Positions 17,078 to 53,964 are shown, counted from the first letter of the stretch. The stretch: DNA of 64,000 nt from Desulfobacterales bacterium (GCA_021737275.1 JAIPEE010000001.1:115686-179685), one strand, 5' to 3'. Notes: generated from the sequence alone by a model not told the origin. Made by a program: numbers and translations.

Positions 17078-17086
17078 TAACGTATT

Positions 17087-20181: not shown

Positions 20182-20200
20182 TTTCATAAAAGGACCTCAC

Positions 20201-21667: not shown

Positions 21668-21719
21668 ATATCTATCTGAAAAAAAATTATCGTTTCCAAT
21701 CCCGCATCGACGGAATTTT

Positions 21720-35500: not shown

Positions 35501-35509
35501 GGAGGAAAA

Positions 35510-36289: not shown

Positions 36290-36315
36290 CATTTGCAAAA
36301 GTTGAAATCCGGGTT

Positions 36316-36338
36316 CCCTCTCCCTTGATGGGAGAGGG
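36316..36338. other. GC-rich 9-bp hairpin (ccctctccc-ttgat-gggagaggg) between nikK-like and cbiM/nikM
   Basis: Perfect 9-bp stem with no U-tract. It may act in differential expression or mRNA stability within the operon. Confidence 0.4.
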
Positions 36339-36442
36339 TCAGGGTGAGGGTAAACCATCTAAGCAACGGATCTGCTTCATCTCCCCCTGATTTTTTTCAT
36401 GACACCCAAAAACTTTATAGCGTATAGATAAGGGCTATTTTT

Positions 36443-37057
36443 GTGCATATATCTGAAGGAATATTATCCGGGCCGGTTCTGATTTCCGGTATGGCCATTG
36501 CCGCTGCCGGGACAGCTATCGGACTGAAAAAACTCAGAAATGAAGACATCGCCAAAACAGGTATGCTGGCGGCATCTTTTTTTGTGGCCTCATTGATACA
36601 TATCCCCATTGGCCCGGCCGGCGTCCATCTGATCCTGAGCGGCATTGTCGGTCTTTTGCTGGGGTGGGCAGCTTTTCCGGCTATACTCGTTGCATTAACG
36701 CTACAAGCCACCTTTTTCCAACACGGCGGCATAACAACACTTGGTGTTAATACAGTGATAATGGCTTTACCTGCCGTAGTCTGTCATTATCTTTTTGCGC
36801 CTCTGATCTGGAAGAATAAAACCATATCCGCGATAGGTGCCTTTGGTGCAGGTAGTATAGCCATTGTTCTTAATGCTGTGATCGCCGGTCTGGCACTTAT
36901 ATATACGGATGAAGGATTATTCAAAGCTGCTGCCCTGATTATGGGTGCCCACCTTCCAGTCATGATTATAGAAGGTATTATCAGTATCTTTTGTGTAGCC
37001 TTTTTAAAAAAAGTTCAACCCGCTCTATTACCCGGATTTAAGAGCATCAACAATTAA
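36443..37057 (+). CDS. CbiM/NikM substrate-capture (S) component of ECF Ni/Co transporter
   Basis: The GTG start gives the N-terminus MHISEGIL, which is the metal-ligating Met1-His2 end conserved in CbiM/NikM. 204 aa, multi-TM. Confidence 0.8.
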   Translation: MHISEGILSGPVLISGMAIAAAGTAIGLKKLRNEDIAKTGMLAASFFVASLIHIPIGPAGVHLILSGIVGLLLGWAAFPAILVALTLQATFFQHGGITTLGVNTVIMALPAVVCHYLFAPLIWKNKTISAIGAFGAGSIAIVLNAVIAGLALIYTDEGLFKAAALIMGAHLPVMIIEGIISIFCVAFLKKVQPALLPGFKSINN

Positions 37058-37068
37058 GGAGCAGCACT

Positions 37069-37746
37069 ATGAATATTATTTCCGCTATCTCTGAATATGC
37101 CATCCCCGCAAAAGTGGGAATCCGGAAACAGTGTAACGCCAAAGATACTTTTTATAAGCTGCCTTTTACAGCTTCATTAGTAATATTACTGTTTTTTTTC
37201 CCCAATATTGCATTTGCCCACAATGTCTCTATTTTTGCATGGGAAGAAGGTGATACCGTATATACCCAAAGTAAATTCAGCGGCGGCAAACGGGTTAAAG
37301 GTGGCACTATCATCGTAACCGATCCGAATAACAATGTACTTCTTGAGGGTAAAACCGATGATGGCGGTTTGTTCTCTTTTATCCGACCCGGCAGCGGTTT
37401 GCTGAAAATCAAGCTTGATGCCGGCTTGGGGCATGCCAACTACTGGGAACTTCCGGCGCTGGAAGCTGACGTAATAACCGACTCAAACATCGAATTACCG
37501 GAAACAATAAATGCCACTGAAAATAAAACGCTTACCGTTATAACACCTGATATTCAAAAAGAAATTGACATCGCTGTTGAAAAAGCGCTGGATAAAAGGC
37601 TCAAACCCATTATGCAGACACTGGCGGATAATCAGCAACAAGGACCGGACCTCAGAGATATTCTGGGCGGGCTTGGCTATATTTTAGGCCTGATGGGTAT
37701 GGCAGCTTATTTTAAATATAGAAAGCAAAATAATATAATAAAATGA
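37069..37746 (+). CDS. NikL-like accessory membrane-anchored protein
   Basis: N- and C-terminal TM helices flank a beta-sandwich-like segment (GGTIIVTDPNNNVLLEGKTDDGGLFSF). Its position between M and Q matches NikKMLQO-type operons. Confidence 0.45.
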   Translation: MNIISAISEYAIPAKVGIRKQCNAKDTFYKLPFTASLVILLFFFPNIAFAHNVSIFAWEEGDTVYTQSKFSGGKRVKGGTIIVTDPNNNVLLEGKTDDGGLFSFIRPGSGLLKIKLDAGLGHANYWELPALEADVITDSNIELPETINATENKTLTVITPDIQKEIDIAVEKALDKRLKPIMQTLADNQQQGPDLRDILGGLGYILGLMGMAAYFKYRKQNNIIK

Positions 37747-38498
37747 TAAACGAACCCTTTGCTGCCGGCACGTCAATTATACACAAACTTGGACCTCGCT
37801 ACAGGATTGTCATTGCTGTGCTGTATGCCTTTATTGTTGCAGTTTCCTATCAGTTTCCCGTGCTGATACTTTCTCTTTGCATCTCTGCAATTATGGCAGT
37901 TTGTGCCCAACTGAATTTCAGGGCGCTCGTTCAACGCCTTTTGTTAGTAAATGTGTTCATCCTGTTTTTCTGGATTGTTCTGCCCCTGACCGGTGGTGGT
38001 GATATCCAATTTTATGTTGGCCCCCTGCCGGTTTATAAGAACGGCATTTTAATGTCTGCCCGGATCACATTGAAATCAAATGCTATTTTACTTTCCCTGA
38101 TCTCCCTGATTGCCACTATGCCGTTTTCTGTAGCCGGACAAGCGCTGCATGCACTTAAAGTATCTGACAAAATCGTACACCTGCTTTTAATAAGTTATCG
38201 GTATATTTTTGTACTTGAGCAGGAGTACCGACGCCTTATTACAGCAGCCAGAATCCGCGGCTTCAAAGCCGGAAACAACATACATACATTAAAAACAGTA
38301 GCGTACCTGGCGGGCATGCTGCTGGTCCGCGCGGTACGTCGTGCAGAGCGCGTACATCAGGCTATGCTATGCAGGGGATTTAAAGGGAAATATTACTGCC
38401 TGGCATCATTTAAACCATCTTATGGGAACTGGATATTTACGACCTTTATGGCAATTATTATTATCTGTCTTGCTGTAATGGAATGGGGAAATATATGA
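37743..38498 (+). CDS. CbiQ/NikQ (EcfT-type) transmembrane component
   Basis: 251 aa, multi-TM, with the ARIRGF/...RAERVHQAMLCRGF C-terminal motifs typical of CbiQ. ATGA overlap with the upstream gene. Confidence 0.75.
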   Translation: MINEPFAAGTSIIHKLGPRYRIVIAVLYAFIVAVSYQFPVLILSLCISAIMAVCAQLNFRALVQRLLLVNVFILFFWIVLPLTGGGDIQFYVGPLPVYKNGILMSARITLKSNAILLSLISLIATMPFSVAGQALHALKVSDKIVHLLLISYRYIFVLEQEYRRLITAARIRGFKAGNNIHTLKTVAYLAGMLLVRAVRRAERVHQAMLCRGFKGKYYCLASFKPSYGNWIFTTFMAIIIICLAVMEWGNI

Positions 38499-39223
38499 CG
38501 GAAAGTAAAACGTTAATACATCTTGAGAATGTTTTTTTTGCTTACCCTGATGGCAGAGCTGTATTAAATAACCTGCAGTTCGACTTTTACAAAAATGATA
38601 AAATCGGCCTGATGGGTGCCAATGGCACCGGCAAAACAACGCTTTTCCACGTTATCATGGGACTTAGAAAACCGGATAAAGGATCTATCACACTTTTTGG
38701 CAAACCGGTTTCAAAGGAAAAACATTTTGCAAAGGTTCGCCATCGCATCGGTTTATTATTCCAGGATGCAGATGATCAATTATTTTGTCCCACTGTTCTG
38801 GAAGATGTCACTTTCGGACCACTGAACCTCGGACTTTCAAAAAAAGAAGCCACACGCATAGCAAAAGAGACATTAACATCATTAGGCCTGGCCGGTTATG
38901 AAGAACGGATTACCCACAAGCTGTCCGGTGGTGAGAAGAGAATGGTTTCCCTTGCTACTGTTCTGGCAATGAAACCGGAAGCACTTCTACTTGATGAGCC
39001 CACCACAGGTCTGGATGATCAGACCAAGGCGCGCCTCACAGAGGTGCTTCAAGTCCTGGATATCTCGCGCATTGTTATTTCTCACGATTTTGATTTTCTT
39101 TCCAAAGTAACTGAAGGTGTTTACCTGATGGAAGATGGAAAAATTATCACGGATGCTGATATTCATGTTCATCAGCATGTTCATGCGCATGCGCATGGGG
39201 CACATAGGCATGAACATAAATAA
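38483..39223 (+). CDS. CbiO/NikO ATPase component with His-rich C-terminal tail
   Basis: Walker A GANGTGKTT, signature LSGGEKR and Walker B LLLDEPT. It ends DADIHVHQHVHAHAHGAHRHEHK. Confidence 0.85.
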   Translation: MGKYMTESKTLIHLENVFFAYPDGRAVLNNLQFDFYKNDKIGLMGANGTGKTTLFHVIMGLRKPDKGSITLFGKPVSKEKHFAKVRHRIGLLFQDADDQLFCPTVLEDVTFGPLNLGLSKKEATRIAKETLTSLGLAGYEERITHKLSGGEKRMVSLATVLAMKPEALLLDEPTTGLDDQTKARLTEVLQVLDISRIVISHDFDFLSKVTEGVYLMEDGKIITDADIHVHQHVHAHAHGAHRHEHK

Positions 39224-39234
39224 ACCGATATCGG

Positions 39235-40254
39235 CTATTGGTGTGGAAAACCATTCTTATCAAAGGTTAAATCTGAAAATGCAAACATAAATTCATGTTC
39301 CTGGCTGCGGAAATGCCATTGATTCAGGTGGTTAAATCCTACCATCCGGCTAAGACTCGCAAAATCGAGCATCCAGCCATTCTCCCCTTTACGGAAAAAA
39401 TAAGGTGCACACTGCCGATTATTGACGGAGAATCGGATCACCGCAAGATTGCCCTCTTCATAGAGCTTGCCGTCATCTTTACATTTTATCAGATCCCGTA
39501 ATTCATTATCCTGCTGACCATCCGTTACCAGCCATTTTTCAAAAAACTTCCGTGTTTCCGGTGTATAAACTTCCAGATGAGGATCTTTAATATGATTTTC
39601 CAATATCGCCATGTATACTTCAAGTGTCAGTTGCGGTGTCGGCCGGCTCCCGAACATTTCTGCATTCTCGAGAGATTCTTTTCGGATACCTTCACTTCCG
39701 ATTTTTACGTCGGTTTTAGCGCCGGCACCACCTGACCAGTTATCTAAAACAGGCTTTTCCTCATCAGATATATAACCGGCATCATCAATCACTCCGAACG
39801 CTTTTGCAACAATCAGCTCTACAGTTGCCTCAATACCGGGCCCTACCTTTCCGGTCCGAAAAAAAGGTACCATCTGATCCCGCTCAATCCTTCCAATAAA
39901 GATATCCGTAAAAATGCCTTCAAGGTCATATCCTACTTCCATTCTGACCTGACCCCCGTGAGGATCAATAACCATCAAAACACCGTTGGCTCCGCGAGTA
40001 TTTTCACCCAGGTTATATTCATCGAACAGATCAATGGCAACCTGATCGATATCAGATGTGCCTTCTTTTAAAACGGTAACCTTAAGATGAATATCCAGCT
40101 TCTGAAACAGCTTTTCATAATAAGTGCTGATACGCCTGGTTTCATCGTCAGTTAATATTCCTGCACGATCATCAATAAATGCATTTGAAGCATCTTTACC
40201 GGAGCAACCGAGGATCAGTCCGGCAACCAAAATTGAGATACAAAAGTTTTTCAT
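39235..40254 (-). CDS. TPM-domain lipoprotein with extra C-terminal domain
   Basis: Lipobox LILGC/S. FIDDRAGILTDDETRRISTYYEKL resembles the start of a TPM (DUF477) domain. The stop is TAG. Confidence 0.5.
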   Translation of the reverse strand: MKNFCISILVAGLILGCSGKDASNAFIDDRAGILTDDETRRISTYYEKLFQKLDIHLKVTVLKEGTSDIDQVAIDLFDEYNLGENTRGANGVLMVIDPHGGQVRMEVGYDLEGIFTDIFIGRIERDQMVPFFRTGKVGPGIEATVELIVAKAFGVIDDAGYISDEEKPVLDNWSGGAGAKTDVKIGSEGIRKESLENAEMFGSRPTPQLTLEVYMAILENHIKDPHLEVYTPETRKFFEKWLVTDGQQDNELRDLIKCKDDGKLYEEGNLAVIRFSVNNRQCAPYFFRKGENGWMLDFASLSRMVGFNHLNQWHFRSQEHEFMFAFSDLTFDKNGFPHQ

Positions 40255-40304
40255 TTTATCAAAAGGATCTCTTATATGACAGGAAGTTAAACAACCAGAG
40301 ATAG

Positions 40305-40931
40305 TTATCGCTCTGTTGTAGCAAGTTTCAAGGCAAGTCCTATAAAAACCGTACCTGCAATCCGATTCATTATTTTCTGTACATTTTCTGATCGATTAAG
40401 CCATTGTCCCAAAGAACCGGCCAGCAAAGCAATACTGCCAAACACCAGTATCGTTGCGAAATTAAATATGCCGCCCAGCATTATGAGCTGCAAGGTTAAA
40501 GTGCCGCGTGCCGGATCTGCAAACTGTGGTAAAAAAGCTAAAAAGAAAATGGATACCTTGGGGTTGGTGATATTCATAATGATCCCGCGTCGATATAGTT
40601 TCCAAAAATCAGAATTACCGTTTTGGTCCGCTTTTATCTCTGTTGCTGATGAACGAAAGGCTTGCCATGCGAGATAAAGCAGATAGCCTGCACCAAAAAG
40701 TTTAAGTACTGTAAAAGCAATTGCAGACACCTGGAAAATAACGGCCACTCCGAATGCAACCGCCATGGTGTGGCCGACAAGCCCGGTACACAAACCAAGC
40801 GTCACAATCAGGCCCGACAGTTTTCCACGCAACGCTGATTGCGTCAAAACAAAGATATTATCCGGCCCTGGCGCAAGGGCAAGCAGAACAGATGCCATAA
40901 AAAATGTTGCCATAATTTCAATTGATATCAT
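40305..40931 (-). CDS. LysE/RhtB family amino-acid exporter
   Basis: 208 aa. N-terminal LAPGPDNIFVLTQSALRG is typical of LysE/RhtB. Confidence 0.75.
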   Translation of the reverse strand: MISIEIMATFFMASVLLALAPGPDNIFVLTQSALRGKLSGLIVTLGLCTGLVGHTMAVAFGVAVIFQVSAIAFTVLKLFGAGYLLYLAWQAFRSSATEIKADQNGNSDFWKLYRRGIIMNITNPKVSIFFLAFLPQFADPARGTLTLQLIMLGGIFNFATILVFGSIALLAGSLGQWLNRSENVQKIMNRIAGTVFIGLALKLATTER

Positions 40932-40958
40932 TATTAAATTTTCCTTTGAACTGACGCC

Positions 40959-41723
40959 TTAATACCGCAGTTTACATCCTTTTTGGAGCGTCACAAGTGT
41001 CAGTGTACTCACCAGGATAAAAAAGGCTGAAACAATAACCGCACTCACCATTACAGCGTGATCCGAAACGCCAAGGAAACCATATCGAAACCCGTCAATC
41101 ATATAAAAAAGCGGATTCAGCATGGAAACTTTTTGCCAGAAGCCCGGAAGAGATTTAATGGAGTAAAAAGATCCGCTCAGAAACGCCAGCGGCAGCACAA
41201 CAAAATTCTGAAACGCGGCAATGTGGTCCCATTTATCTGCCCATATGGCTGAAAGCAGGCCGAGAGAGCCCAAGACACCGCTGCCGATAAAAGCAAAAAA
41301 CAGAAGGATCCATATATTATAAATATCCGGTGTAATAAAAAAAACACAAATCAGAAATGCACTGATCCCCACCAGTACGCCCCTGACAATTGCCGCACAG
41401 GTATAGGCAATAAAAACTTCAAGGTTTGAAAGCGGCGCCAGCAGCATAAAAACAATGTTCCCGTTCAGTTTGGACTGGAAAAGGCTGGATGAATTATTGG
41501 CAAAGGCATTCTGGATTACCGACATCATCACCAGGCCGGGAACCAGAAAAAGAGTATATCCCACCCCGTCATAAATTTCCACATGCTCTGAAAGAACTGA
41601 TGCAAACACCAGAAGATACAGCAGTATCGTTATAACGGGCGTAACAATGGTCTGTATCGCCACTTTTAGAAACCGCCAAACTTCCTTGGAAAAAAGCGTA
41701 TACATCCCGCGCAGATTAATCAT
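40959..41723 (-). CDS. ABC-2 type transporter permease
   Basis: 254 aa, 6 TM helices, ABC-2 profile. 8-nt overlap with the ATPase gene. Confidence 0.7.
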   Translation of the reverse strand: MINLRGMYTLFSKEVWRFLKVAIQTIVTPVITILLYLLVFASVLSEHVEIYDGVGYTLFLVPGLVMMSVIQNAFANNSSSLFQSKLNGNIVFMLLAPLSNLEVFIAYTCAAIVRGVLVGISAFLICVFFITPDIYNIWILLFFAFIGSGVLGSLGLLSAIWADKWDHIAAFQNFVVLPLAFLSGSFYSIKSLPGFWQKVSMLNPLFYMIDGFRYGFLGVSDHAVMVSAVIVSAFFILVSTLTLVTLQKGCKLRY

Positions 41724-42636
41724 TATTCTCTCCTGTCAGTGATATAAAAATCTCTTCAAGCCCCGGCACTTCCGTTCGTAAATCGCTGAAAGAAACTTTG
41801 GCCGCATAAAGCGCCTCAAGAATATTCCCGATACGGTCCTTTTCCCTGTGGAGACGAAGTGTAACATTCCTGCCTTTAAAGGAAACGGCCATATCACGAA
41901 TCTTTTCCGGTAACGCCGAACTCGAATCCTTCAGTTCCAGATGCAGATAACTGTAGGGATAACGGGATAACAGGGATTTTGTGGTTTCATTGGCTATCAG
42001 TTTTCCATGATCGAGAATGGCAATCTTCTCACATAACGCCTCTGCCTCTTCAAGATAATGAGTTGTCAAAAGAATGGTGTGACCATCTCCATGAAGTTCC
42101 CTGGTAAACTCCCATAAAACCTTTCGAAGCTGAACATCCACACCTGCCGTCGGCTCATCCAGTACAACCACGCTGGGCTTATGGACAAGTGCCTGGGCAA
42201 TCAGCACGCGCCTTTTCATACCGCCGGAAAGTTTCATCATGTTTTCATCAGCTTTACCGCCAAGATCCAATCGTTCAAGCAGCTCGTCAATCCAGGGATA
42301 ATTTCCGGAACCGAGCCCGAAATAACCGGACTGAAGCCGAAGCATCTGCCTGGCCGAAAAAAACGGATCATAGGCCAGTTCCTGTGGTACGACACCAAGG
42401 GCATTTCTTGCCTTACGCCATTTTCGACGGACATCGTTTCCCATTACATCAATATTACCGTCACTGGCATGAGTCAGGCCGGCCATGATATTTATCAGCG
42501 TAGATTTTCCCGCACCATTGGGACCGAGAAGGCCGAAAAAACTGCCCTTGTCAATTGAAAAGTCCACATGGCTCAATGCTTTAAGAGAACCGTAATTCTT
42601 TGATATATCAGAAACCTTTACTGCCGGGATTGTCAA
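41716..42636 (-). CDS. ABC transporter ATP-binding protein (ABC-2/DrrA-like)
   Basis: GPNGAGKST, LSGGMKRR and VVLDEPTAG motifs. Confidence 0.85.
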   Translation of the reverse strand: MTIPAVKVSDISKNYGSLKALSHVDFSIDKGSFFGLLGPNGAGKSTLINIMAGLTHASDGNIDVMGNDVRRKWRKARNALGVVPQELAYDPFFSARQMLRLQSGYFGLGSGNYPWIDELLERLDLGGKADENMMKLSGGMKRRVLIAQALVHKPSVVVLDEPTAGVDVQLRKVLWEFTRELHGDGHTILLTTHYLEEAEALCEKIAILDHGKLIANETTKSLLSRYPYSYLHLELKDSSSALPEKIRDMAVSFKGRNVTLRLHREKDRIGNILEALYAAKVSFSDLRTEVPGLEEIFISLTGENND

Positions 42637-42756
42637 TTTTATAATCTCTCCATTTCTGTTTTTGTTTTTTGAAAACCAATAATGACATTATCATTTTAAA
42701 GTGACTTATGCCATATGTCCGGTAAAAAAAATTATATTGTTGAAAAGGTGGGGGGG

Positions 42757-42788
42757 ATCATAACCGGACCGGGACGTCCGGTTATGAT
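42757..42788 (-). terminator. 13-bp perfect hairpin downstream of the ATP-grasp::GNAT gene (possible terminator or operon boundary)
   Basis: atcataaccggac (42757-69) and gtccggttatgat (42776-88) with a 6-nt loop. On the minus strand it is followed by a C-run and then a T-rich tract, not an immediate U-tract. Confidence 0.35.
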
Positions 42789-42817
42789 ACTGATACGGAA
42801 GATCTTGTATTGCAGAT

Positions 42818-44452
42818 TTAAATTTTACCGGTTGATCGGGCTGTCAGCTCTTTTGTCGTCTTCCTGAATTCCTGTGGCAGCGTCTTACAGTAAACCATCT
42901 TGTTGTCTCCGGATGAATAGAAATCATTAAATGTCGCTTCAAGAAGATATCCATGCTTTTCGTAAAAAGCCCGTGTCCCTGAATACTGGGGTCTTGAGGC
43001 GGTTTCTACATATAGCCGTGAGCCACCGGCGGCCGAAACACTGTCTTCAACCTTTTGAAGCAGAATTTTTCCCAATCCTGCCCCCTGACAAGAAGGCTGA
43101 ACTGCAATCCAGAATAAATCATAGCTGGATGTTGTACACGCAACCGGCCCATAACACGAAAATCCCATAAGTGAATCTTGAAAATCTGCCAAAATAAAAT
43201 AATATCCGCTTTTACTTCCCCGCTGCAGAGAATCCTGAAGTATTTCACCGAGCACACTTTTTTCTGAAGGGAGAAAAAAGCCCGTATTATCAATCAGTGA
43301 ACGAACTTTAGAAACATCATCAGGATGAGGCTCATATCTCAGCATAATGCCATCCAACGAGAACTGCTGTGTTCCGGTATCCACAGAATCGGTTTGTGTA
43401 TCTGAGCGTTTGCTCTTACAGTATATATCTGGTGTTATGTATTCGCTTTTTGCTGAAAAAATAATTCGTTCAACAGCTTTCGCATATTTAATCCCGGCCA
43501 TATCAAGTGCAGCCGAAAAACCGGCATCTGGTGACAAACAGGGATTTGTATTTACTTCCAGTATCCATGGATTTCCTTTATGGTCCACCCGGAAATCAAC
43601 CCGGGCATACCCTTTCAACCCCATATTTTCCCAGCAACGTTTAGCCAGTGAAGTCATCGTTTTAAGTAATTCTTTGTCTTCGGCAGGGAAGTCAAATCGC
43701 CGGGGAGTATGGTGATATTCAAATGAACCCTCTTCCCATTTGGCCTTGTACCCGACAATGTGAAGCATATTTTCAGGATAATCTTCAAAAACAATTTCCG
43801 CTGGAGGCAATACCTGGACCTGACCGTTCTCATCCTGAAGCAGAGAGAGATTAAATTCACGCCCGTCAATATAACACTCAGCAAAGCACGCTCCCCCCAG
43901 GGATGGTGCATGTTTTTTCATAAGATCCAGAACGTCACGAATATTGCCATTTACTAACTTGTCTTCATCCAGACCCGACGAGGCATGATCACACAACGAT
44001 TTGATCAGCCAGCTGTTTTTTGAAAACGATCCGGCGCTTATTTCAGGCCGGTATATGCCCGGCAGGACCGGCGGCCAGGGCGGTATCCACTTGGGTGTCG
44101 GCAATCCGGTGGCCATCATCAGCTCCTTGGCCATTACCTTTTGAGAGGTAATTCTGATTGACTCAGCCGGCGAACCGGTATAACGCAACCCCATAGTGTC
44201 TAATAGTGACGGCACAACATCTATCAGGCGATCATGCCCTTCCAGTGATTCCACCAGGTTGAATACACAATCCGGTTTAGCTTTTTCCAGCGCATACTTT
44301 AATTCCAAAAGATTAAGATTGCAGGAAATACGGATTGCTTCATGACCCAGTTCTGTCAGTGCATCCGATACCGCATTAACCTGCATCAGTACATCCAGAT
44401 CATCCAGAGAGCTGTCCTCTTCAACAGCATTATAGACAACAACTATCCGCAT
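42818..44452 (-). CDS. fusion protein: Ddl-like ATP-grasp ligase (N-terminal ~330 aa) plus GNAT acetyltransferase (C-terminal ~160 aa)
   Basis: 544 aa. A pre-ATP-grasp/ATP-grasp region ends ...ARVDFRVDHKGNPWILEVNTNPCLSPDAG. The GNAT core is WIAVQPSCQGAGLGKILL...AFYEKHGY. Confidence 0.7.
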   Translation of the reverse strand: MRIVVVYNAVEEDSSLDDLDVLMQVNAVSDALTELGHEAIRISCNLNLLELKYALEKAKPDCVFNLVESLEGHDRLIDVVPSLLDTMGLRYTGSPAESIRITSQKVMAKELMMATGLPTPKWIPPWPPVLPGIYRPEISAGSFSKNSWLIKSLCDHASSGLDEDKLVNGNIRDVLDLMKKHAPSLGGACFAECYIDGREFNLSLLQDENGQVQVLPPAEIVFEDYPENMLHIVGYKAKWEEGSFEYHHTPRRFDFPAEDKELLKTMTSLAKRCWENMGLKGYARVDFRVDHKGNPWILEVNTNPCLSPDAGFSAALDMAGIKYAKAVERIIFSAKSEYITPDIYCKSKRSDTQTDSVDTGTQQFSLDGIMLRYEPHPDDVSKVRSLIDNTGFFLPSEKSVLGEILQDSLQRGSKSGYYFILADFQDSLMGFSCYGPVACTTSSYDLFWIAVQPSCQGAGLGKILLQKVEDSVSAAGGSRLYVETASRPQYSGTRAFYEKHGYLLEATFNDFYSSGDNKMVYCKTLPQEFRKTTKELTARSTGKI

Positions 44453-45461
44453 GGATGACCTCCTGCAGCTCAGGACCTGTCTTCACCCGTTTTATGGCTG
44501 ATGTCAGTATCCGGTCAATAAGCGTAATATATGGGATACCCAGTTTTGAACATAAAATCGGCAGATCGGAATGTTCCGGATGAAGCCCTGCCAGCGGATT
44601 AACTTCAATGAAGGACGGCGCGCTGTTTTCATCACACCGAATATCAACTCTTCCGCCGTCCCGGCAGCCAAGTACCCGCCATACAGAAAGTGCGAGGGCT
44701 TCCGCATCTGCAATAACAGGACTCATATCTGCCTTTACCAGCCTATACTCAACAAGTTCTTCACAACGCTCTTTATTAACATAAGAATATACATTCTTTT
44801 CAGCGCATGAAAGTAAAATGATCTCCAGGGTACCGACAACTTCGGCATCAGATCCGGTACCGATAATTCCTACCGTAAATTCACGTCCGGGCAAAAAACG
44901 CTCCACAATCAGGGGCGGTGTGTATTTTTCCAGAAGAAAACGACAAACATGGTCAAGTTGCTCCGGCTGATAAATGACCGAATTTTCTGTAATCCCTTTC
45001 CCTGTTCCTTCCGCAACAGGCTTTATAAAATAAGGCGGTTCAAATGTCACCCTGCCGGCATCTTCAATAGTATATATTTCATGAAACTCCGGTGTTGCCA
45101 GTCCTGCATCCCGGACCACCCGCTTGGTCATGCCTTTATGCAGGGAAAGTGCCATAACCAGAGGATCTGAAAAAGTATAGGGAATCCCATAAACATCCAG
45201 TATGGCAGGAATCTGGGCTTCACGGCCAATTCCCTTCAAACCCTCTGCGATATTAAAAACCAGGTCCCACCGATCTCCGCATGCAAGTCTTCCAATAAGC
45301 TCCTCAGCATTTCCAATAGGGTCTGCTTTGTGTCCAAGGCTTTCCAGGGCTTCTGCCAGCGATTCAATCGTATCCAACCGATCGAATTCGGCGGTTTCCT
45401 CTTCACTGTATCCCTTTGCCAGGTAAGCCTGGCGCAAATCATATGTCAGACCGATTTTCAT
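44430..45461 (-). CDS. D-alanine--D-alanine ligase-family ATP-grasp enzyme (substrates unknown)
   Basis: 343 aa. ...YFIKPVAEGTGKGI..., GREFTVGIIG and GGRVDIRCDENSAPSFIEVNPLAGL are ATP-grasp motifs. 23-nt overlap with the downstream fusion gene. Confidence 0.7.
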   Translation of the reverse strand: MKIGLTYDLRQAYLAKGYSEEETAEFDRLDTIESLAEALESLGHKADPIGNAEELIGRLACGDRWDLVFNIAEGLKGIGREAQIPAILDVYGIPYTFSDPLVMALSLHKGMTKRVVRDAGLATPEFHEIYTIEDAGRVTFEPPYFIKPVAEGTGKGITENSVIYQPEQLDHVCRFLLEKYTPPLIVERFLPGREFTVGIIGTGSDAEVVGTLEIILLSCAEKNVYSYVNKERCEELVEYRLVKADMSPVIADAEALALSVWRVLGCRDGGRVDIRCDENSAPSFIEVNPLAGLHPEHSDLPILCSKLGIPYITLIDRILTSAIKRVKTGPELQEVIHADSCCL

Positions 45462-45542
45462 TTTCCCCTCCGCTTAAAAATTAAAATCATATTTTTTTTA
45501 TTTTTGATGAGATCCGTATATTGCCCGATCCGGATACTTATG

Positions 45543-46853
45543 CTATAAAAAACCGTCATCATATCCGTCCGATCTGTCGGGATAACTGTAAAACTTATTT
45601 TTATAATTTTTAAAAATTATCTCTTCCTCATTACGGCTGCTGATATAATCCGGCATCAATGGAATTTTTCCACCGCCGCCGGGGGCATCTACCACGTATG
45701 TGGGCAGGGCATACCCGCTGGTGAAACCCCGTAAACCTTTGATAATTTCGAGACCTTTTGATATCGGCGTACGGAAATGGCCGGAACCCGCTATGGGGTC
45801 ACACTGATAGAGGTAGTAGGGACGTACACGCATTTTAAGAAGATGGTGAACCAGCGCTGTCATTGTTTCAACAGAATCATTGATACCTTTAAGTAAAACG
45901 GTCTGAGACCCAAGGGGTATTCCGGCATCTGCTAACATTTTACAGGCACGATAGGCTTCGGGTGTACACTCATCCGGGTGGGTAAAGTGGAGACTCATCC
46001 AGAGGGGGTGGAATTTTTTAAGCATTCGGACAAGTTCCGGTGTTATCCGCTGTGGGAGTACAGCCGGCACTTTTGTGCCGATCCGGATAATCTCCAGGTG
46101 AGGAATCTGCCTCAGGTTGCCGAGCAGCCAGGACAAACGTTCCTCATGCATCGTCAGCGGGTCACCGCCGGATACAATCACATCTCTTATGGCAGGTGTG
46201 TTTTTAATATACTCAAGGCCCTTTTTAAGAGAGTTCAAAGACAGATTCATCTTTCCGTTTCCTACTGCTCGTGAGCGGGTACAGTAACGGCAATAGGTTG
46301 AGCAGTAATCCGTTACCATGAACAGCGCTCTGTCCGGATACCGGTGAACGATGCCGGGTACGGGGCTCTGATCATCTTCGCATAGAGGATCATTGCTTTC
46401 GCAGGGCATATAATTATATTCATATTTCGTAGGCACAACTGACCGTCTTAACGGGTCCTGCGGATTATCCACAGCAAGCAAACTCATATAATACGGTGTA
46501 ATAGACAGCGGAAGCGACCTGTCTACAGAAATTGACTCCGCTTGTGAAAGCGTCAGATAACTTTTCAATTCATCAAGGCTGCGTATTGAATTTCGAATCT
46601 GCCAGCGCCAGTCATTCCATAATTTATTTGGTACTTCAGGGTAATATGTGCGTCTGAACAGAACTGTTTTGGGACTGCTTCCCGGTTTAAGTGGAATTTT
46701 TAGAGATGTTTTTTTACTTAACTGCAGACATGGCAGGACTACTTCATGCCGAGCTTCATCGGGCAATGGTATTTCAGAACTATCAGGAGGGTCCTCATCC
46801 TGCTCATCAGCAACATCTTTTTCCACGAACTTGACATCCATCAGTGGTGCCAT
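45543..46853 (-). CDS. kamA: lysine 2,3-aminomutase (KamA/AblA-family radical SAM, PLP-dependent)
   Basis: CSTYCRYCTRS radical-SAM site and VVDAPGGGGK PLP-lysine motif. Both Asp residues that bind the lysine epsilon-amine in Clostridium LAM are present (YQCD and VVDAPGGGGK contexts). There is a ~65-aa acidic/Pro-rich N-terminal extension. The stop is TAG. Confidence 0.85.
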   Translation of the reverse strand: MAPLMDVKFVEKDVADEQDEDPPDSSEIPLPDEARHEVVLPCLQLSKKTSLKIPLKPGSSPKTVLFRRTYYPEVPNKLWNDWRWQIRNSIRSLDELKSYLTLSQAESISVDRSLPLSITPYYMSLLAVDNPQDPLRRSVVPTKYEYNYMPCESNDPLCEDDQSPVPGIVHRYPDRALFMVTDYCSTYCRYCTRSRAVGNGKMNLSLNSLKKGLEYIKNTPAIRDVIVSGGDPLTMHEERLSWLLGNLRQIPHLEIIRIGTKVPAVLPQRITPELVRMLKKFHPLWMSLHFTHPDECTPEAYRACKMLADAGIPLGSQTVLLKGINDSVETMTALVHHLLKMRVRPYYLYQCDPIAGSGHFRTPISKGLEIIKGLRGFTSGYALPTYVVDAPGGGGKIPLMPDYISSRNEEEIIFKNYKNKFYSYPDRSDGYDDGFL

Positions 46854-47109
46854 CTTTATTTCTCCTTTTTGCGTCTGTCTTTTCGCCTTGGTCCGGTTTA
46901 TCTGATCCGGTTCGGGGGTAGGATCGAATCGCTGAAATGAATTAAGGTTCCGGTTGCCTTAACCTGTCAAGGCATATCCGTTTTCAGGTTTATGAAACCA
47001 ATGAACCTTTTTTAATATTAAATCAAGAAAAAAATGCAGGACGACAATTAATTTAACATACTGTAATTTAAATAAATATTTAAATAGTCAAATTTTTTTT
47101 TAAAGTACG

Positions 47110-47138
47110 TTGCAAACCCGGCTTCGGAAGTGTATTAT
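47110..47138 (+). promoter_or_regulatory. putative sigma-70 promoter of mtbB (TTGCAA-17 nt-TATTAT)
   Basis: ttgcaa at 47110-15, a 17-nt spacer, and tattat at 47133-38. This predicts a ~135-nt leader before GGGGAGG-ATG. Confidence 0.4.
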
Positions 47139-47280
47139 TTTTCCCGGCCTGAGAATAACATGGCGACTGTATTATTATGAACCGGCATCTTGCAAAATCA
47201 CCAACATGCGGATTTGGGTAAAACTCAAATGCGTATTAAACATATATTCAGCATAACAACCGGTTTTTAAGGGGAGGATC

Positions 47281-48696
47281 ATGATGAAGGATAATATTTT
47301 TACCAGAATGGGTGACGGTGAGCGCATTAAGATGTCTCTTCCCAAAGTTAAGGAAGAAATTGCAGCAGGCGTCCGGGATGCATCTGAAAGAGGTCAAATT
47401 CCTGAATTAAGCGCTGAAGAGCAGGAAAAGCTCTTTGATATACTGGCAGAATCAAGCCGCACGGTCAGTGTTGATCCCGGTGAAGAGGTCATTGTCACTG
47501 ATGACGGTGCTGCCATGTTGACCTATTGCGGCCCGGATGATAGCGGTGTCGGTATACCTATAAGCCGTGAAACAGCCCACCTGGTTTATGAAAGAGTATG
47601 TGCAGCAGATTCTTCGACTGCCGGCCATATTGATTTTAGTTTCAAACCGGCAAAAGCGGTCATCAATCATGAAATGAATGATTATTTTACGATTTCTCAG
47701 AAAACAACCATTCCTCTTTTCTATGGATCACAACCCAACATGGGACTTTACTTTCAGCCGGACGGCCCCTTCCCAAACCCGACGGAACTGATGCCCATGG
47801 GCAAGATTGATGAAGCGCTGGCATCAATGGAAAAAGCAGCCGAATATATGATTGATGATTTAGTATTTTTTGGTAAGGAGATGGCAGAAATCGGGTGTGA
47901 GGGACTTAACTTTGACACATCCGGTTCTGTCGGAGATGCTGATTTTTATGCCGCTCTCCAGTCTATACGGAATTTAAAAGAAGTGTTGCCTGATTTGCCC
48001 ATTATTATCGGCTCAGCATCTGAATTTATCATGGGCATGCACGGAAATATCGAGTTTGACGGCCGGCGTCTGGCCGGAATGTACCCGCACCAGCAGGCCC
48101 AGGTTGCTGAAGCGGCCGGCGCCAGCATATATGGAATGGCGGTAAATGTTGTTACAACGAAATCGTTTCCATGGAACCTTGCCCGTGCACTTACATTTAC
48201 CAAAGCAACTGTTGAGTCGTCTAACATTCCCGTACATCCCAATGTCGGGATGGGCGTATGCGGTATTCCCATGTTTGATCTCCCGCCCATTGATTGTACC
48301 TCGCGTGTAGCAAAAGCACTGGTACAAATCGGAAAAGCCGATGGATTGTAGGTTGGTGTCGGAGATCCTTTTGGTATGCCGATAACGCACATTATGGCAT
48401 CTGGAATGGGAGGTATGCGAACCGCAGGAGATCTTGTGGCATGGACGCAGATGACCCTTAAGATGAAAACTCAGGATGCAAAAAAATATGTTGCAGAGAA
48501 ACTCGGTATTGATGTCCTCAGTCTGACCGATGAAGATGTAATGCGCCCGCTCAGAGAGGAACTGGGTATTGGTGTTCTTACGGCTGTTGTAGGAAGGCCT
48601 GTCGGTATAACGGCTAAGTTAAAAATTTCCGAAATACTGGATATCAAAATAAATTCCGTACAGCGATTTAAAGAGCTGGTGGGATTAGCCATATAA
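47281..48696 (+). CDS. mtbB: dimethylamine:corrinoid methyltransferase with one in-frame UAG (predicted pyrrolysine at codon 357)
   Basis: ORFs 47281..48351 and 48376..48696 share one frame and are joined across TAG 48349-51: ...[40 protein letters not shown].... The whole 471-codon product resembles MtbB end to end (RMGDGERI, GVGIP, GHIDFSFKP, IPLFYGSQPNMGLYF, GMHGNIEFDGRRLAGMYPHQQA, NLARALTF). ATG 47284 is an equally good start. Confidence 0.85.
48349..48351 (+). other. in-frame amber codon, predicted pyrrolysine insertion site
   Basis: gat gga ttg TAG gtt ggt gtc gga gat cct. Conserved MtbB sequence continues directly after the TAG. Confidence 0.8.
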
Positions 48697-48932: not shown

Positions 48933-50591
48933 ATGACCAATCTTACAGAAAAAAAAAGGAATTATTCAAGACCCTGGCTGATAATGGCAATTCTGGTGAT
49001 CAGCCTGTTTATGCTGATCGTTCAGACTGCGCCTGATGCCAGGGCGGAAAGTGAATTGCGCGTCGGCTGGCTGGCTGATGAAATGCTTTCATCACTCGCA
49101 TGTAATGATGCCTGGCAGTATGAAACAATGGGATGCATGTTATGGCAGCTGCTTTATGATCAGGTCTGGTTCTATGGCCCACCACCGCAATACAAACATT
49201 TTCTCAGCGCAATTACAAGCTATGAAACCGAGGATAACATTAATTTCAGATTTCATGTCAGGCAGGGTATGACCTTTCATGACGGCAAACCGGTAACAGC
49301 AAAAGATTTTGCGTTTACCTTTGAACACCTTCCGGTATCCAACCCGATCTGGGCTTATAACAGTTCAACAATTGTACCCAACTCAGCTGTTGTTGTTGAT
49401 GATTATACTCTTGATTTTACAATGAAATTGCTGCTTACGCCCAAATATCCGCCTTTTGACTGGTTTCCTGTTCTACCGGAGCACCTCTGGCGGCGTTACA
49501 AGTTTGATATTGAAAAATTTAAAAACTCAAAAGCTATTGGATCCGGACCGTTTATGCTGGACTCATTTGAAGCCGGGAAATACGCATCCTTTAAAAAATT
49601 CGAGGGCTACTGGGATAAAAAACCGAGAGTTGATAAAATTGTTTTTAAAACATACGGCGGCTCGGATGCGCTGGGTATGGCCATTAAACGCGGTGAAATT
49701 GATATGATGGGTTATGGCGGTGTGAGTCCTTTATCTGCAAAACTGCTGGAAAAAGTAGAAAATGTAAAACTGATTGTTTCACCTGGAATTGAAGTTAAAA
49801 CGTTGACATTTAATATGTTTCCGGAGGGCCCCTTACAGGACCTGACTGTCAGAAAAGCCTTTGTTCATGCTATTAATAAAAAACGTATTGTCGACATGGT
49901 TTATCATGGTCAGGCTGATGAACAAGACAGTTTTATCTATCCGGAACTTGCCAATTACAATCCCAACCTGCCAAAATATGAATTCAACATTGAAACATCC
50001 AAACAACTGCTTGATGAAGGTGGCTATACAGATTCAGATGGTGATGGCTTCAGAAATGATCCGAATTCAGGTAAAAATCTGGAATTCAAGTTTCTGACAT
50101 CCTCCAATGATACGGCAGGAGTTAAAATGGCAACCCTTATCAGAGAGCAGATGAAAGAAATCGGTGTCGGCATCACAATCAATGTTGTAGACATAGATAC
50201 CTTTTATGATCTGGTATACTACCCTCAAAATCCGGTATGGGATATCTCTTTTGTCTCAGAAGAACCCGGACCATATGCCAACTGGATATGGGAATTCATG
50301 AGAAGCTGGAATGATGAATGGGCCATGGGATGGAATACATCATACTATGATAATCCGGAGTTTGACAAGATACTGAATACTTTCAATTCTTCAGCAGATC
50401 TGGAGAAAGCAAAAGCCCTTTGTCATCAAATGCAGTTAATAATGGCAACGGAACTGCCCTATTACGTCATCTGCAGACCGCACACAATTGATCCGGTCCG
50501 GACAGACAAGCTGACTGGTTATGTCTCATATATGGGCGGTGTATCCAACTGGATCAATCCGTTATCTTATTTTAACGTTCATCCTAAATAA
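48933..50591 (+). CDS. ABC transporter substrate-binding protein, family 5 (peptide/nickel/opine type), orphan
   Basis: 552 aa with an N-terminal anchor/signal and an SBP_bac_5-like length and profile (e.g. FHDGKPVTAKDFAFTFE). No cognate permease or ATPase is adjacent. Confidence 0.7.
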   Translation: MTNLTEKKRNYSRPWLIMAILVISLFMLIVQTAPDARAESELRVGWLADEMLSSLACNDAWQYETMGCMLWQLLYDQVWFYGPPPQYKHFLSAITSYETEDNINFRFHVRQGMTFHDGKPVTAKDFAFTFEHLPVSNPIWAYNSSTIVPNSAVVVDDYTLDFTMKLLLTPKYPPFDWFPVLPEHLWRRYKFDIEKFKNSKAIGSGPFMLDSFEAGKYASFKKFEGYWDKKPRVDKIVFKTYGGSDALGMAIKRGEIDMMGYGGVSPLSAKLLEKVENVKLIVSPGIEVKTLTFNMFPEGPLQDLTVRKAFVHAINKKRIVDMVYHGQADEQDSFIYPELANYNPNLPKYEFNIETSKQLLDEGGYTDSDGDGFRNDPNSGKNLEFKFLTSSNDTAGVKMATLIREQMKEIGVGITINVVDIDTFYDLVYYPQNPVWDISFVSEEPGPYANWIWEFMRSWNDEWAMGWNTSYYDNPEFDKILNTFNSSADLEKAKALCHQMQLIMATELPYYVICRPHTIDPVRTDKLTGYVSYMGGVSNWINPLSYFNVHPK

Positions 50592-50970: not shown

Positions 50971-52080
50971 ATGAACAAAACAGCATTATTGATATGGCTT
51001 TGTCTGCTTTTGCTTATGTTCTCAGCATCAACGGAAGCCCGGGCTGAAAAGCAGATCACGGATGCCGCCGGTAAAATAATTGTCATCCCCGAAAAAGTGG
51101 ATCATATCATCTGCTCCGGTTCCGGATGCCTCAGACTTGTGACCTACTTAGGGGCCCAGGATCTTGTGGTGGGGGTGGATGACATTGAAAACCTTAATAA
51201 TAAATTCGATGCCCGCCCTTACTCTCTTGCCAACCCTCAATTTAAAGACCTTCCGGTTTTTGGCGGGTTTCGGGGGCAAGACGTTCCTGAAAAAATCATC
51301 AGCCTTCCCACCCTGCCCCAAGTGATTTTTAAAACCTATGCATCTTCGGGATATGACCCGACCAAGCTTTCAAAAAAAACCGGGATCCCCGTCATCACAC
51401 TTGAATATGGAGATCTCGCCCACAACAGGAAGGACTTTTATACGGCCCTGACCATTCTGGGCCGTGCGCTGGACAGAGAAACCCGTGCCGGGGAATTGAT
51501 TGCCTTTTTCGATGGCCAGATTAAGGAGTTGGAAAACCTGACAAAAAACGTTCCTAACGCCTGGAAAAAGACTTGTTTTGTGGGCGGCATCGCCTTTAAG
51601 GGACCCCACGGTTTCCAATCCACGGAACCTCAGTATCCACCCTTCCAATTCATCAATGCCGAAAATATAGCAAAACCTGCCGACAATGCAAAAAAACTTC
51701 GACAGTGCAATTTTTCCAAAGAAAAAATCCTGACCATGAACCCCGAAGTGCTTTTTCTTGATCTTTCCACCCTCCAGATGGGTGAAGATCAGGGTGGCCT
51801 TTACGAGCTCAGAAACGACCTTGTCTACCGGGAGCTGACTGCCGTGCAAAATGGAAATGTATTCGGGGTACTGCCCTATAACTGGTATAGTCAGAACTCC
51901 GGATCCATTCTGGCCGACGCCTGGTTTATCGGCAAGATTCTTTATCCGAAACAATTTATGGACATCGTTCCCGAAAAAAAAGCGGACGAAATTTATACCT
52001 TTCTTCTGTCAAAACCGATGTTCAAACAGATGAACACATCCTTTAAGCAGATGGTGTTTAAACAGATCGACTTGAATTAG
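50971..52080 (+). CDS. periplasmic binding protein of iron-siderophore/cobalamin-type ABC importer (Peripla_BP_2; BtuF/FecB-like)
   Basis: Signal peptide, then ...IICSGSGCLRLVTYLGAQDLVVGVD..., typical of class III SBPs. It is followed by FecCD-type permease and ATPase genes. The stop is TAG. Confidence 0.7.
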   Translation: MNKTALLIWLCLLLLMFSASTEARAEKQITDAAGKIIVIPEKVDHIICSGSGCLRLVTYLGAQDLVVGVDDIENLNNKFDARPYSLANPQFKDLPVFGGFRGQDVPEKIISLPTLPQVIFKTYASSGYDPTKLSKKTGIPVITLEYGDLAHNRKDFYTALTILGRALDRETRAGELIAFFDGQIKELENLTKNVPNAWKKTCFVGGIAFKGPHGFQSTEPQYPPFQFINAENIAKPADNAKKLRQCNFSKEKILTMNPEVLFLDLSTLQMGEDQGGLYELRNDLVYRELTAVQNGNVFGVLPYNWYSQNSGSILADAWFIGKILYPKQFMDIVPEKKADEIYTFLLSKPMFKQMNTSFKQMVFKQIDLN

Positions 52081-52088
52081 GAGCAGGT

Positions 52089-53159
52089 ATGCATTTTGAC
52101 AACGGCGGCGTACCCGGGGAATACATACGCTATACATTGGAAAAATTTCTGTTTATTGTTCTGGCCCTGGCAACCCTTATCCTGATCATCACTGCCAGTA
52201 TTTCACTGGGCGCTGTACACATCAAGTTCACGGACGTGTTCAACACCCTTTTGAAAAACAACGTGATCAAACAATTTGATCTTATCATATGGAATATACG
52301 GGTGCCCCAGACCCTGACGGCAGTGGTCGCAGGCGCAGGCCTTGCCGGATCCGGCACCGTTATGCAATCTGTGTTAAGAAACCCCATAGCTTCGCCTTTT
52401 ACCCTCGGCATCGCCCATGCCGCAGCATTCGGAGCAGCCTTTTCAGTAATGATCCTGGGATCAGGCGTTATGTCAGGCACCCTTGGAGATGCCGTCAACA
52501 TCTCCAGCCCGATGCTTACCCTCATGTCCGCCTTTGCCTTTTCCATGGGAACCGCCTGCCTTATCACCTGTATTGCAAAAATTAAAAACTCATCTCCTGA
52601 AGTCATGGTCCTTACCGGTGTGGCACTGGGAGCTTTGTTCACGGCCGGCACTATGCTGCTCCAGTTTTTTGCCGATGATGTCCAGCTTGCCGCCATGGTC
52701 TTCTGGACTTTTGGAGATACGGCCAGAACAGACTGGAACGATCTTGCCTTCCTGTCCGTAATCACAATCCCGGTCATGATATATTTTCTGGCCAATTCAT
52801 GGAATTACAATGCCATGGATATCGGCGATGAAACCGCCAAAGGATTGGGGGTGCGGGTCGAAATGGTAAGACTCTCCGGCATGATGGCGGCCTCCCTTGT
52901 CACATCGGTCATCATCTCCTTTGCCGGAATCATCGGATTCATAGGGCTTGTGGCCCCCCATATTGTCAGAAGAATCATTGGAGATGATCACCGTTTTCTC
53001 ATGCCTGCATCCATCCTGACCGGGGCCATTGTCCTGACAGCATCGGATATTGCAGCCAGGCTGGTGCTTTTACCCCATGTCCTGCCCGTTTCCATTTTCA
53101 CTTCCTTTCTGGGCGCACCCGTATTTATATATCTTATTATCAAGGGGAATAAAAAATGA
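52089..53159 (+). CDS. FecCD/BtuC-family ABC permease
   Basis: 356 aa, ~10 TM helices. RNPIASPFTLGIAHAAAFGAA and GFIGLVAPHIVRR motifs. Confidence 0.85.
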   Translation: MHFDNGGVPGEYIRYTLEKFLFIVLALATLILIITASISLGAVHIKFTDVFNTLLKNNVIKQFDLIIWNIRVPQTLTAVVAGAGLAGSGTVMQSVLRNPIASPFTLGIAHAAAFGAAFSVMILGSGVMSGTLGDAVNISSPMLTLMSAFAFSMGTACLITCIAKIKNSSPEVMVLTGVALGALFTAGTMLLQFFADDVQLAAMVFWTFGDTARTDWNDLAFLSVITIPVMIYFLANSWNYNAMDIGDETAKGLGVRVEMVRLSGMMAASLVTSVIISFAGIIGFIGLVAPHIVRRIIGDDHRFLMPASILTGAIVLTASDIAARLVLLPHVLPVSIFTSFLGAPVFIYLIIKGNKK

Positions 53160-53944
53160 TACTTGATGTGAATAAACTTGCCTTTACCTACAAGCGCCAT
53201 GACATCCTCAACGATATCGGTTTTACCATTCAGCAAGGAGAAATCACCGTCATCCTCGGCCCCAACGGCGTAGGGAAAACCACCCTGCTTAAATGCCTCA
53301 ACGGCATCCTCTCTCCCCAAGAAGGTAATATCCTTATCAAGGATAAAAATATCAGAACCATGACCATCAAAGAGATAGCCCGGCAGGTCGCCTATGTGGC
53401 TCAGAAAAGTGACGCGGCCGGAATAACCGTTTTTGATGCCGTGCTCATGGGCAGAAAGCCCCATATCAATTACAGGGCCGGGAAAGCAGATCTCAAAAAG
53501 GTGGATGCGGTCATCCGCCACCTGAACCTTTCCGGGATCAGCCTGAAATACCTGAATCAGTTAAGCGGAGGAGAACTTCAAAAGGTCTGCATTGCAAGGG
53601 CCCTGGTTCAGGAGACAGACCTTCTGCTTATGGATGAACCCACTGCAAGCCTGGACCTGAAAAACCGGATCCATATACTGGAACTGATCCGACACATTAT
53701 TAAAGGCCACCATATAGCGGCGGTCATGACCATGCACGATCTGAACACCGCCATGAGATATGCGGACAAGTATATTTTTTTAAAGGACCGAACCATCTAT
53801 TCGGCCGGAGATATCCGGGATGTCACCCCTGAAATGGTGGAAGAGGTTTACGGTATCAGGGTCGACATCATGCATCACAAAGGGCTTCCGGTAGTCATTC
53901 CCGTAAACGGTTCCGATATTCCCGGAACAAAACAGGCAGCCTGA
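53156..53944 (+). CDS. ABC ATPase (FecE/BtuD-like)
   Basis: GPNGVGKTT, LSGGELQK and LLMDEPTASLD motifs. ATGA overlap with the permease gene. Confidence 0.85.
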   Translation: MILDVNKLAFTYKRHDILNDIGFTIQQGEITVILGPNGVGKTTLLKCLNGILSPQEGNILIKDKNIRTMTIKEIARQVAYVAQKSDAAGITVFDAVLMGRKPHINYRAGKADLKKVDAVIRHLNLSGISLKYLNQLSGGELQKVCIARALVQETDLLLMDEPTASLDLKNRIHILELIRHIIKGHHIAAVMTMHDLNTAMRYADKYIFLKDRTIYSAGDIRDVTPEMVEEVYGIRVDIMHHKGLPVVIPVNGSDIPGTKQAA

Positions 53945-53964
53945 TTTTTAAAAAAGGAGCGATT

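Follow-up and report, generated by a model that had tools for sequence, protein, structure and literature searches.

A conserved gene set for a KamA-family aminomutase, two Ddl-like ATP-grasp ligases and a GNAT acetyltransferase: a candidate route to N-acetylated beta-lysine conjugates in Desulfobacterales and other bacteria

To our knowledge, the known fates of beta-lysine are few: it serves as an osmolyte, is used for EF-P modification, appears in lysine fermentation, and is a component of some antibiotics. N-epsilon-acetyl-beta-lysine, an osmolyte, is made in methanogens and some bacteria by the aminomutase AblA and the acetyltransferase AblB, while EF-P is beta-lysylated by the aminomutase EpmB together with EpmA, a LysRS paralog. 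Two further systems share parts of their chemistry with the one considered here. In pyrrolysine synthesis, PylB rearranges lysine by radical S-adenosylmethionine (SAM) chemistry and the Ddl-like ATP-grasp enzyme PylC then links the resulting diamino acid through an amide bond. The dipeptide N-acetylglutaminylglutamine amide (NAGGN) is made by Ngg, which has an N-terminal GNAT domain and a C-terminal ATP-grasp domain, with AsnO as a partner. Here we describe a locus at positions 42818-46853 of a 64,000-nucleotide stretch (the window) from a Desulfobacterales bacterium (GCA_021737275.1 JAIPEE010000001.1:115686-179685) that encodes a KamA-family aminomutase, an ATP-grasp ligase (ligase A) and a second ATP-grasp ligase (ligase B) fused to a GNAT domain. 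We judge it somewhat better than an even bet that these genes are a self-contained biosynthetic operon for beta-lysine formation, two ATP-dependent ligations and N-acylation.

All three genes lie on the minus strand. The first (45543-46853) encodes a radical-SAM, pyridoxal phosphate (PLP) dependent aminomutase of the KamA family, 436 amino acids long, with the Pfam domains LAM_C (72.4 bits with a cut-off of 26.7) and Radical_SAM. The second (44430-45461) encodes ligase A, 343 amino acids, with the domain Dala_Dala_lig_C (6.3e-21). The third (42818-44452) encodes a fusion protein of 544 amino acids with Dala_Dala_lig_C and, at residues 408-502, Acetyltransf_1/7/10; an identical sequence is on record from a Desulfobacterales metagenome-assembled genome (P0001). 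The genes for the aminomutase and ligase A are separated by 81 nt, and those for ligase A and the fusion overlap by 23 nt. An earlier note on this DNA, made from the sequence alone, had described three co-directional, tightly packed genes and had assigned their products to these families. The open reading frames (ORFs), lengths and spacing are as it gave them, and its domain calls, including the second Ddl-like ATP-grasp domain fused to a C-terminal GNAT, agree with the Pfam and NCBIfam profile models, applied here with curated cut-offs.

The same note had proposed looking for the trio in other genomes. A scan with a single genome for each species gave at least 582 relatives of the fusion protein, and 80 loci, from at least seven phylum-level groups, were kept for counts. 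The trio proved to be syntenic across many phyla and linked by gene fusions, so that the refuting condition named in the note, no co-occurrence outside this genome, clearly fails. Ligase A lies upstream of ligase B in 65 of the 70 loci with enough flanking sequence, and KamA is present in 56 of 62 such loci; the gene order is nearly always KamA, ligase A, ligase B, GNAT. The two ligase genes nearly always abut, with a median of ∼25 nt between the aligned stretches. Judged by the taxon labels on the records of metagenome-assembled genomes, the full set is found in Desulfobacterota, Planctomycetota, Lentisphaerae, Bacteroidota, Clostridia, Gamma- and Alphaproteobacteria, and Krumholzibacteria. 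The cultured Desulfonema limicola has the module as a four-gene operon (CP061799.1, 2798128-2815453) in which every gene overlaps. At 50% identity, ∼1,100 clusters match the fusion protein at E ≤ 1e-30, a number that may include non-orthologous ATP-grasp or GNAT proteins.

The ATP-grasp::GNAT fusion, which the earlier note had listed as one of the three parts, is real in the window but lineage-specific: ligase B and GNAT are fused in 36 of the 80 loci and are separate genes elsewhere. At ∼25 loci the two genes share one frame and are parted by a single stop codon (L019, L022, L026, L029, L031-L033, L038, L040-L043, L045, L049, L051-L054, L058, L060, L064, L068, L079). As this single stop may be TGA, TAG or TAA, it suggests repeated fusion or fission by point mutation at the junction. 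Fusions of ligase A to ligase B are also seen, in P0159 and in several more proteins of 640-730 amino acids among the matches of the fusion search. Two kinds of apparent variation were discarded as artefacts of ORF calling: the "C4" ORFs that run antisense in loci rich in GC, and the "long grasp" ORFs of 704 aa that were called in L059 and L072.

The aminomutase aligns to the solved lysine 2,3-aminomutase 2A5H with a score of 475 bits, and once the Fe-S motif is reached its numbering stays 59 ahead of that of 2A5H. The Fe-S cysteines C184, C188 and C191, within CSTYCRYCTRS, correspond to C125, C129 and C132 of 2A5H, and the PLP lysine K396 in GGGGK corresponds to K337. R193, D352 and D389 occupy the positions of R134, D293 and D330, which we take to be the substrate-binding and lysine-specifying residues. 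All seven residues are invariant among 30 database homologs. The alignment thus bears out the radical-SAM site, the PLP lysine and both lysine-specifying aspartates that had been noticed in the sequence.

Classification with curated models, suggested as a check, gave a less simple picture. The only aminomutase model passed is that of the KamA family as a whole (TIGR00238, 348.9 bits with a cut-off of 199.2). AblA is the best-scoring named model, but the AblA equivalog TIGR03820 stays below its cut-off (487.4 vs. 525.4 bits) and matches at model positions 5-361 of 417. The models for glutamate aminomutase (417 vs. 650 bits), arginine aminomutase (368 vs. 600) and EpmB (243.4 vs. 369.3) also fail. 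The shortfall against AblA is due to a missing C-terminal domain, as the protein is a short form without the C-terminal ∼50 amino acids of the clostridial enzyme and stops 10 residues past the position of residue 367 in 2A5H. In 2A5H this domain presumably forms an inter-subunit zinc site from Cys268 and a C-terminal Cys triad; the position of Cys268 reads Ser in our protein. Since the protein ends 10 residues after the core, we assign it, from its sequence, to a distinct short-form clade with a lysine-type pocket.

To compare the ligases, both families were mapped onto E. coli DdlB numbering, with 30 sequences per paralog family. K97, K144, E180, E187, K215, R255, D257, E270 and N272 are invariant (30/30) in each family. 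As every catalytic residue for ATP and Mg is retained, both proteins are predicted to be active ligases. The two families differ at positions E15, S150, Y216, S281 and L282. Ligase A has Ala, Thr, Glu, Ser and Asp there, so that S281 is retained, and the Asp at L282 is invariant; ligase B has Asp, Ala, Trp, Ala and Gly, and further changes replace E68 by Leu, Y210 by Val and G276 by Cys. Ligase A would thereby have an acidic nucleophile pocket, formed by Glu at Y216 and Asp at L282, and ligase B a wider one, given by the Trp, Ala and Gly at Y216, S281 and L282. Both ligases are acidic, with an isoelectric point (pI) of ∼4.8-5.0; this acidity and the putative acidic pocket of ligase A would fit a cationic substrate.

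In the fusion protein, ligase B makes up residues 1-338 (43439-44452), followed by a linker at residues 339-364 (43361-43438) and the GNAT domain at residues 365-544 (42821-43360). The AlphaFold model of the fusion has a mean predicted local distance difference test score (pLDDT) of 81 and consists of a Ddl-like domain, a disordered linker (pLDDT < 50 at 339-362) and a GNAT domain; the linker is variable and is not conserved in the alignment. It is at this point that the single in-frame stop divides the two genes at the ∼25 other loci. A Foldseek search with the confidently modeled ligase B domain returned Ddl structures as the best matches, with a template modeling (TM) score of ∼0.79.

Database records name both ligases "D-alanine-D-alanine ligase". 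This name would agree with an explanation in which the two ATP-grasp proteins are unrelated to the pathway, being for instance cell-wall D-Ala-D-Ala ligase paralogs that lie nearby by chance, while the remaining genes carry out plain N-acetyl-beta-lysine synthesis; the similarity of the aminomutase to AblA and the presence of a GNAT in the cluster point the same way. However, both ligases score far below the cut-offs of the Ddl models, with 137.6 bits for ligase A and 108 bits for ligase B against 243 for NF002378, the best Ddl model, and 104.9 and 91.3 bits against 245.65 for TIGR01205. The D-Ala-binding residues are replaced in both, and the GNAT fails the AblB model (see below). Chance proximity is already largely refuted by the synteny of the ligases with KamA and GNAT across phyla, and by their fusions to each other and to the GNAT, and we give this explanation hardly any credence.

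The GNAT domain matches Acetyltransf_1 with 39.8 bits (cut-off 20.7) and contains the acyl-CoA motif QGAGLGKILL, of which QGAGLG is conserved. It belongs to the same family as PDB 2R7H (DDE_3044 of Desulfovibrio G20), a structural-genomics entry without an assigned function, to which it is similar both in sequence (135 bits) and in structure (TM 0.96, root-mean-square deviation 1.0 Å). With the AblB model TIGR03827 it scores 20.8 bits against a cut-off of 205.1, and this sets the locus apart from AblA plus AblB, as had been argued. The best named GNAT match is RimI, which is also below its cut-off (41 vs. 86.4 bits).

At 12 loci the GNAT forms the C-terminus of a GNAT-deacetylase-GNAT protein (L038, L043, L046, L056, L061, L063, L067, L075-L078, L080). 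Some Desulfobacterales, Desulfohalobiaceae and Bacteroidales have this three-domain protein, in which acetyltransferase and deacetylase are carried on one chain, in place of the simple GNAT; it is also found in Desulfonema limicola (L084, 11324-13597). The deacetylase domain is closest to acetylpolyamine amidohydrolases (APAH; 6PHR, 4.9e-75). The substrates of these enzymes are N-acetylated aminoalkyl chains, which N-epsilon-acetyl-beta-lysine resembles, and a deacetylase of this type would fit a beta-lysine unit that is acetylated at its terminal aminoalkyl amine. Because some lineages insert an APAH domain, acetylation in these lineages may be transient or reversible and not a feature of the final product.

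The aminomutase also has an N-terminal tail, KamA residues 1-68 (46650-46853), that precedes the first residue aligning to 2A5H. An unusual extension of ∼65 amino acids had been noted here, and it is real: the ATG at 46853 is preceded by a strong Shine-Dalgarno sequence, AAAGGAGA, and ligase-adjacent KamA homologs of every phylum sampled carry tails of similar length. The tail is acidic in its first half and basic in its second half, with a pI of 4.99, and is predicted to be disordered, AlphaFold giving pLDDT < 50 for residues 1-55. Its acidic E-P-P motif, ADEQDEDPPDSS at residues 15-26 (46776-46811), is an instance of an acidic run followed by E/D-P-P-S/G/D shared by 44 of the 47 KamA homologs linked to the cluster (loci L004-L081). 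The motif lies 41-94 residues upstream of WNDWxWQ, with which the core starts, all but two instances being at 46-70. Across 30 database homologs P22 never varies, and conservation is 90% or higher at D19 and P23. The E-P-P element would resemble a short linear binding motif, and the acidic tail probably docks the aminomutase to its partner enzymes.

A conserved acidic motif in a disordered tail, specific to cluster-linked KamA, could also be read as the target of a protein- or carrier-linked system. Here a ligase would attach beta-lysine or lysine to a protein carboxylate, such as a Glu in the KamA tail, by the logic of LysX/LysW or RimK, and the GNAT and the deacetylase would act on the tethered species. 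ATP-grasp enzymes include protein-modifying members, an amidohydrolase release step has a parallel in LysK/ArgE, and RimI is the best named match of the GNAT. Yet that match is below its cut-off; both ligases are of the Ddl type rather than the RimK/LysX type, and they keep K215 and R255, as well as S281 in ligase A, which bind the carboxylate of a small molecule. Moreover, the neighborhood has no conserved candidate target gene, and the retention of R134 and both Asp in KamA points to free lysine as the substrate. We regard such a system as decidedly unlikely. A more specific form, drawn by analogy with LysW, would make the tail itself a carrier or docking arm: either one Ddl-like ligase would load beta-lysine onto a carboxylate of the tail, or the tail would hold the ligases against the aminomutase, so that the intermediate is borne by the enzyme and the GNAT and amidohydrolase serve for protection and release. 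We think this a long shot.

For the biosynthetic operon that we favor, the domain identities, catalytic residues, synteny and fusions described above are what is shown, and from them we infer the substrates, product, sequence of steps and physiological role. Because the lysine-type active site is intact, the KamA-type enzyme would convert free L-lysine to beta-lysine (3,6-diaminohexanoate). Ligases A and B would then each form one ATP-dependent amide bond via an acyl-phosphate; the acidic pocket of ligase A would fit a cationic acceptor such as beta-lysine, and the widened pocket of ligase B a larger acceptor such as the first product. Finally, the GNAT would use an acyl-CoA, probably acetyl-CoA, to acylate a free amine, most likely the terminal (epsilon) amine of the aminopropyl type, and would do so reversibly in APAH-bearing lineages. 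We would expect the product to be a small di- or tripeptide or amide that contains beta-lysine and is N-acetylated. Thus, of the pathway claimed in the earlier note, the aminomutase site, two intact non-Ddl ligases and the synteny stand, while the product is wholly inferred and the acetylation may be transient.

The product would most likely be a cytoplasmic compatible solute or a polyamine-like metabolite of anaerobes. One copy of the module has a fused trehalose-6-phosphate synthase/phosphatase gene directly upstream (probably L018 631-2829 or L043 2457-4664), and this gene is the only hint of a link to osmolytes.

Several points weigh against this interpretation. No member of the module has a recorded product, substrate or phenotype. 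The aminomutase, being below the AblA cut-off and without the C-terminal domain, leaves the stereochemistry and the lysine substrate unproven, and the pockets proposed for ligases A and B depend on an alignment with DdlB at ∼20-25% identity. One result in favor, the correlation between the three proteins' matrices of pairwise distances (r = 0.67-0.75, Mantel p = 0.001), could partly stem from the species phylogeny that they share. At a few loci (Kiritimatiellia, Lentisphaerales, and one in Clostridia) ligase B-GNAT is found without the other two genes nearby. For the osmolyte role, the single trehalose-gene neighbor is anecdotal support, and the module is also found in freshwater syntrophs.

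The genes around the trio bear on a further alternative. Following the trio on the same strand (39235-42636) are genes for an ABC ATPase, an ABC-2 permease, a LysE-family exporter and a TPM-domain lipoprotein. The product could accordingly be imagined as oligo- or poly-beta-lysine or an exported bioactive beta-lysine peptide, with the acetyl group as self-protection or a pro-form, the APAH domain activating or recycling it, and the exporters secreting it. Streptothricins combine beta-lysine chains with self-resistance by N-acetylation, and two ligases with different acceptor pockets could start and then extend a chain. Candidate exporters are seen elsewhere too, an MFS gene within the cluster at L048 and an EamA gene after the cluster at L060. 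Nonetheless, no transporter family accounts for more than 2 of the 47 same-strand neighbors, the ABC/LysE gene order is not kept in related loci, and in the window a gap of 181 nt with promoter-like matches inside parts the fusion from the ABC gene. With no conservation of the genes around the module, neither the ABC-2 nor the LysE exporter counts as an established part of the system. The module also looks long-held and widely retained, unlike a sporadic antibiotic cluster. An exported peptide or polymer therefore seems to us fairly improbable.

Among the flanking genes of the 80-locus set nothing recurs except the deacetylase fusion (12 loci) and a CxxCxxCC protein (5 loci), and hence the module appears to be self-contained. 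The gene for the small CxxCxxCC (PF03692) protein sits between those for KamA and ligase A (L002 207-725, L011 6497-6994, L019 6418-6999, L056 7253-7930 and L065 7412-7930). The window has a PF03692 gene of its own (34234-34959, minus strand), which on comparison was rejected as an ortholog of the cluster-linked proteins.

We also looked for expression signals. Rfam gave zero matches at E ≤ 1 over 42500-47400. No plausible sigma-54 promoter was found upstream of KamA, the frequency of matches being not above chance, and the matches in sigma-70 and terminator scans were likewise at chance level.

Divergent from the aminomutase gene lies mtbB (47281-48696, plus strand), encoding a dimethylamine methyltransferase and interrupted by an in-frame stop, with a pyrrolysine insertion element (PYLIS) at 48349-48448 (Rfam RF02509, 98.5 bits). 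Given the in-frame stop and the PYLIS, the Desulfobacterales host probably decodes pyrrolysine. The adjacency of mtbB to the module does not recur at other loci, and it looks coincidental, since the module occurs in many lineages without known use of pyrrolysine.

Further from the trio, the window contains a cobalt or nickel uptake cluster of the CbiM/CbiQ/ABC type that includes DUF4198 and HI_1622_C proteins (35474-39223, plus strand), a gene for a family-5 solute-binding protein (48933-50591), and an uptake system of the periplasmic-binding-protein/FecCD/ABC kind, after which come a TrmO-like gene and one for a DAO-family oxidoreductase (50971-56216, plus strand). The G+C content is 0.36-0.41 at 8000-22000 compared with 0.45-0.48 in the flanks, and this stretch may have been acquired. 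At 2533-6834 (minus strand) there is a very long ORF of 1433 amino acids, and the protein encoded at 26663-28639 has no exact match on record.

The earlier note held the pathway to be undescribed. We found no account of a system combining KamA with ATP-grasp enzymes in the literature searched, where papers on aminomutases and ATP-grasp enzymes were judged by title and abstract, and one possibly relevant survey of amidoligases fell outside the coverage. Three literature matches were set aside: one on Pelobacter concerns canonical ablAB, one points to Dde_3047, an unrelated phosphatase, and one on sigma-54 has no bearing on the system. The enzyme families are known, while their combination, the tail motif and the deacetylase-bearing variant are undescribed in that literature. 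The module has a wide distribution among sulfate reducers, syntrophs, planctomycetes and Bacteroidales of anoxic habitats. If our reading is true, it would add a new class of beta-lysine metabolites built by ATP-grasp enzymes, and would provide a function for PDB 2R7H and for thousands of genes now mislabeled "D-alanine-D-alanine ligase". The cultured carriers Desulfonema limicola and Desulfovibrio alaskensis G20 make the prediction directly testable.

Compared with the systems introduced above, the module is similar to AblA/AblB in that the gene for a KamA-family aminomutase of the lysine type adjoins a GNAT gene. Unlike AblA, the aminomutase in the window is below the AblA cut-off, has no C-terminal domain and carries a conserved N-terminal tail; moreover, its GNAT is of another family, two ATP-grasp ligases are obligatory, and some lineages add an APAH domain. 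With EpmB it shares the short form of a KamA-family aminomutase without the clostridial C-terminal domain. Still, the EpmB model fails (243.4 vs. 369.3 bits), and the partners are ATP-grasp ligases instead of a LysRS paralog. The annotated flanks, which take in ∼10 kb on the downstream side of the trio and everything upstream as far as the end of the window, contain neither an EpmA/tRNA-synthetase-like gene nor an AsnO-type amidotransferase. The separation from EpmB plus EpmA made in the earlier note is thereby upheld.

The analogy with Ngg, drawn in the same note, holds in part. Both systems have a GNAT fused to an ATP-grasp ligase leading to a small N-acetylated peptide, but the likeness is one of logic, seen in a comparison of architectures only: the domain order in the window is reversed, with the ATP-grasp domain first, the ligase is Ddl-like, and the building block would come from an aminomutase. 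Similar to PylB/PylC, a radical-SAM rearrangement of lysine would be followed by Ddl-like ATP-grasp amide joining of the rearranged diamino acid. The radical-SAM enzyme of the window, however, is of the PLP-dependent KamA family and not PylB-like, and no PylC chain was among the PDB sequence matches at E ≤ 0.001, although no direct comparison with a PylC sequence was made. Finally, both ligases have the fold and the full ATP/Mg catalytic apparatus of the Ddl/VanA family, while they are under every Ddl cut-off and have their D-Ala-binding positions changed in ways specific to each ligase family.

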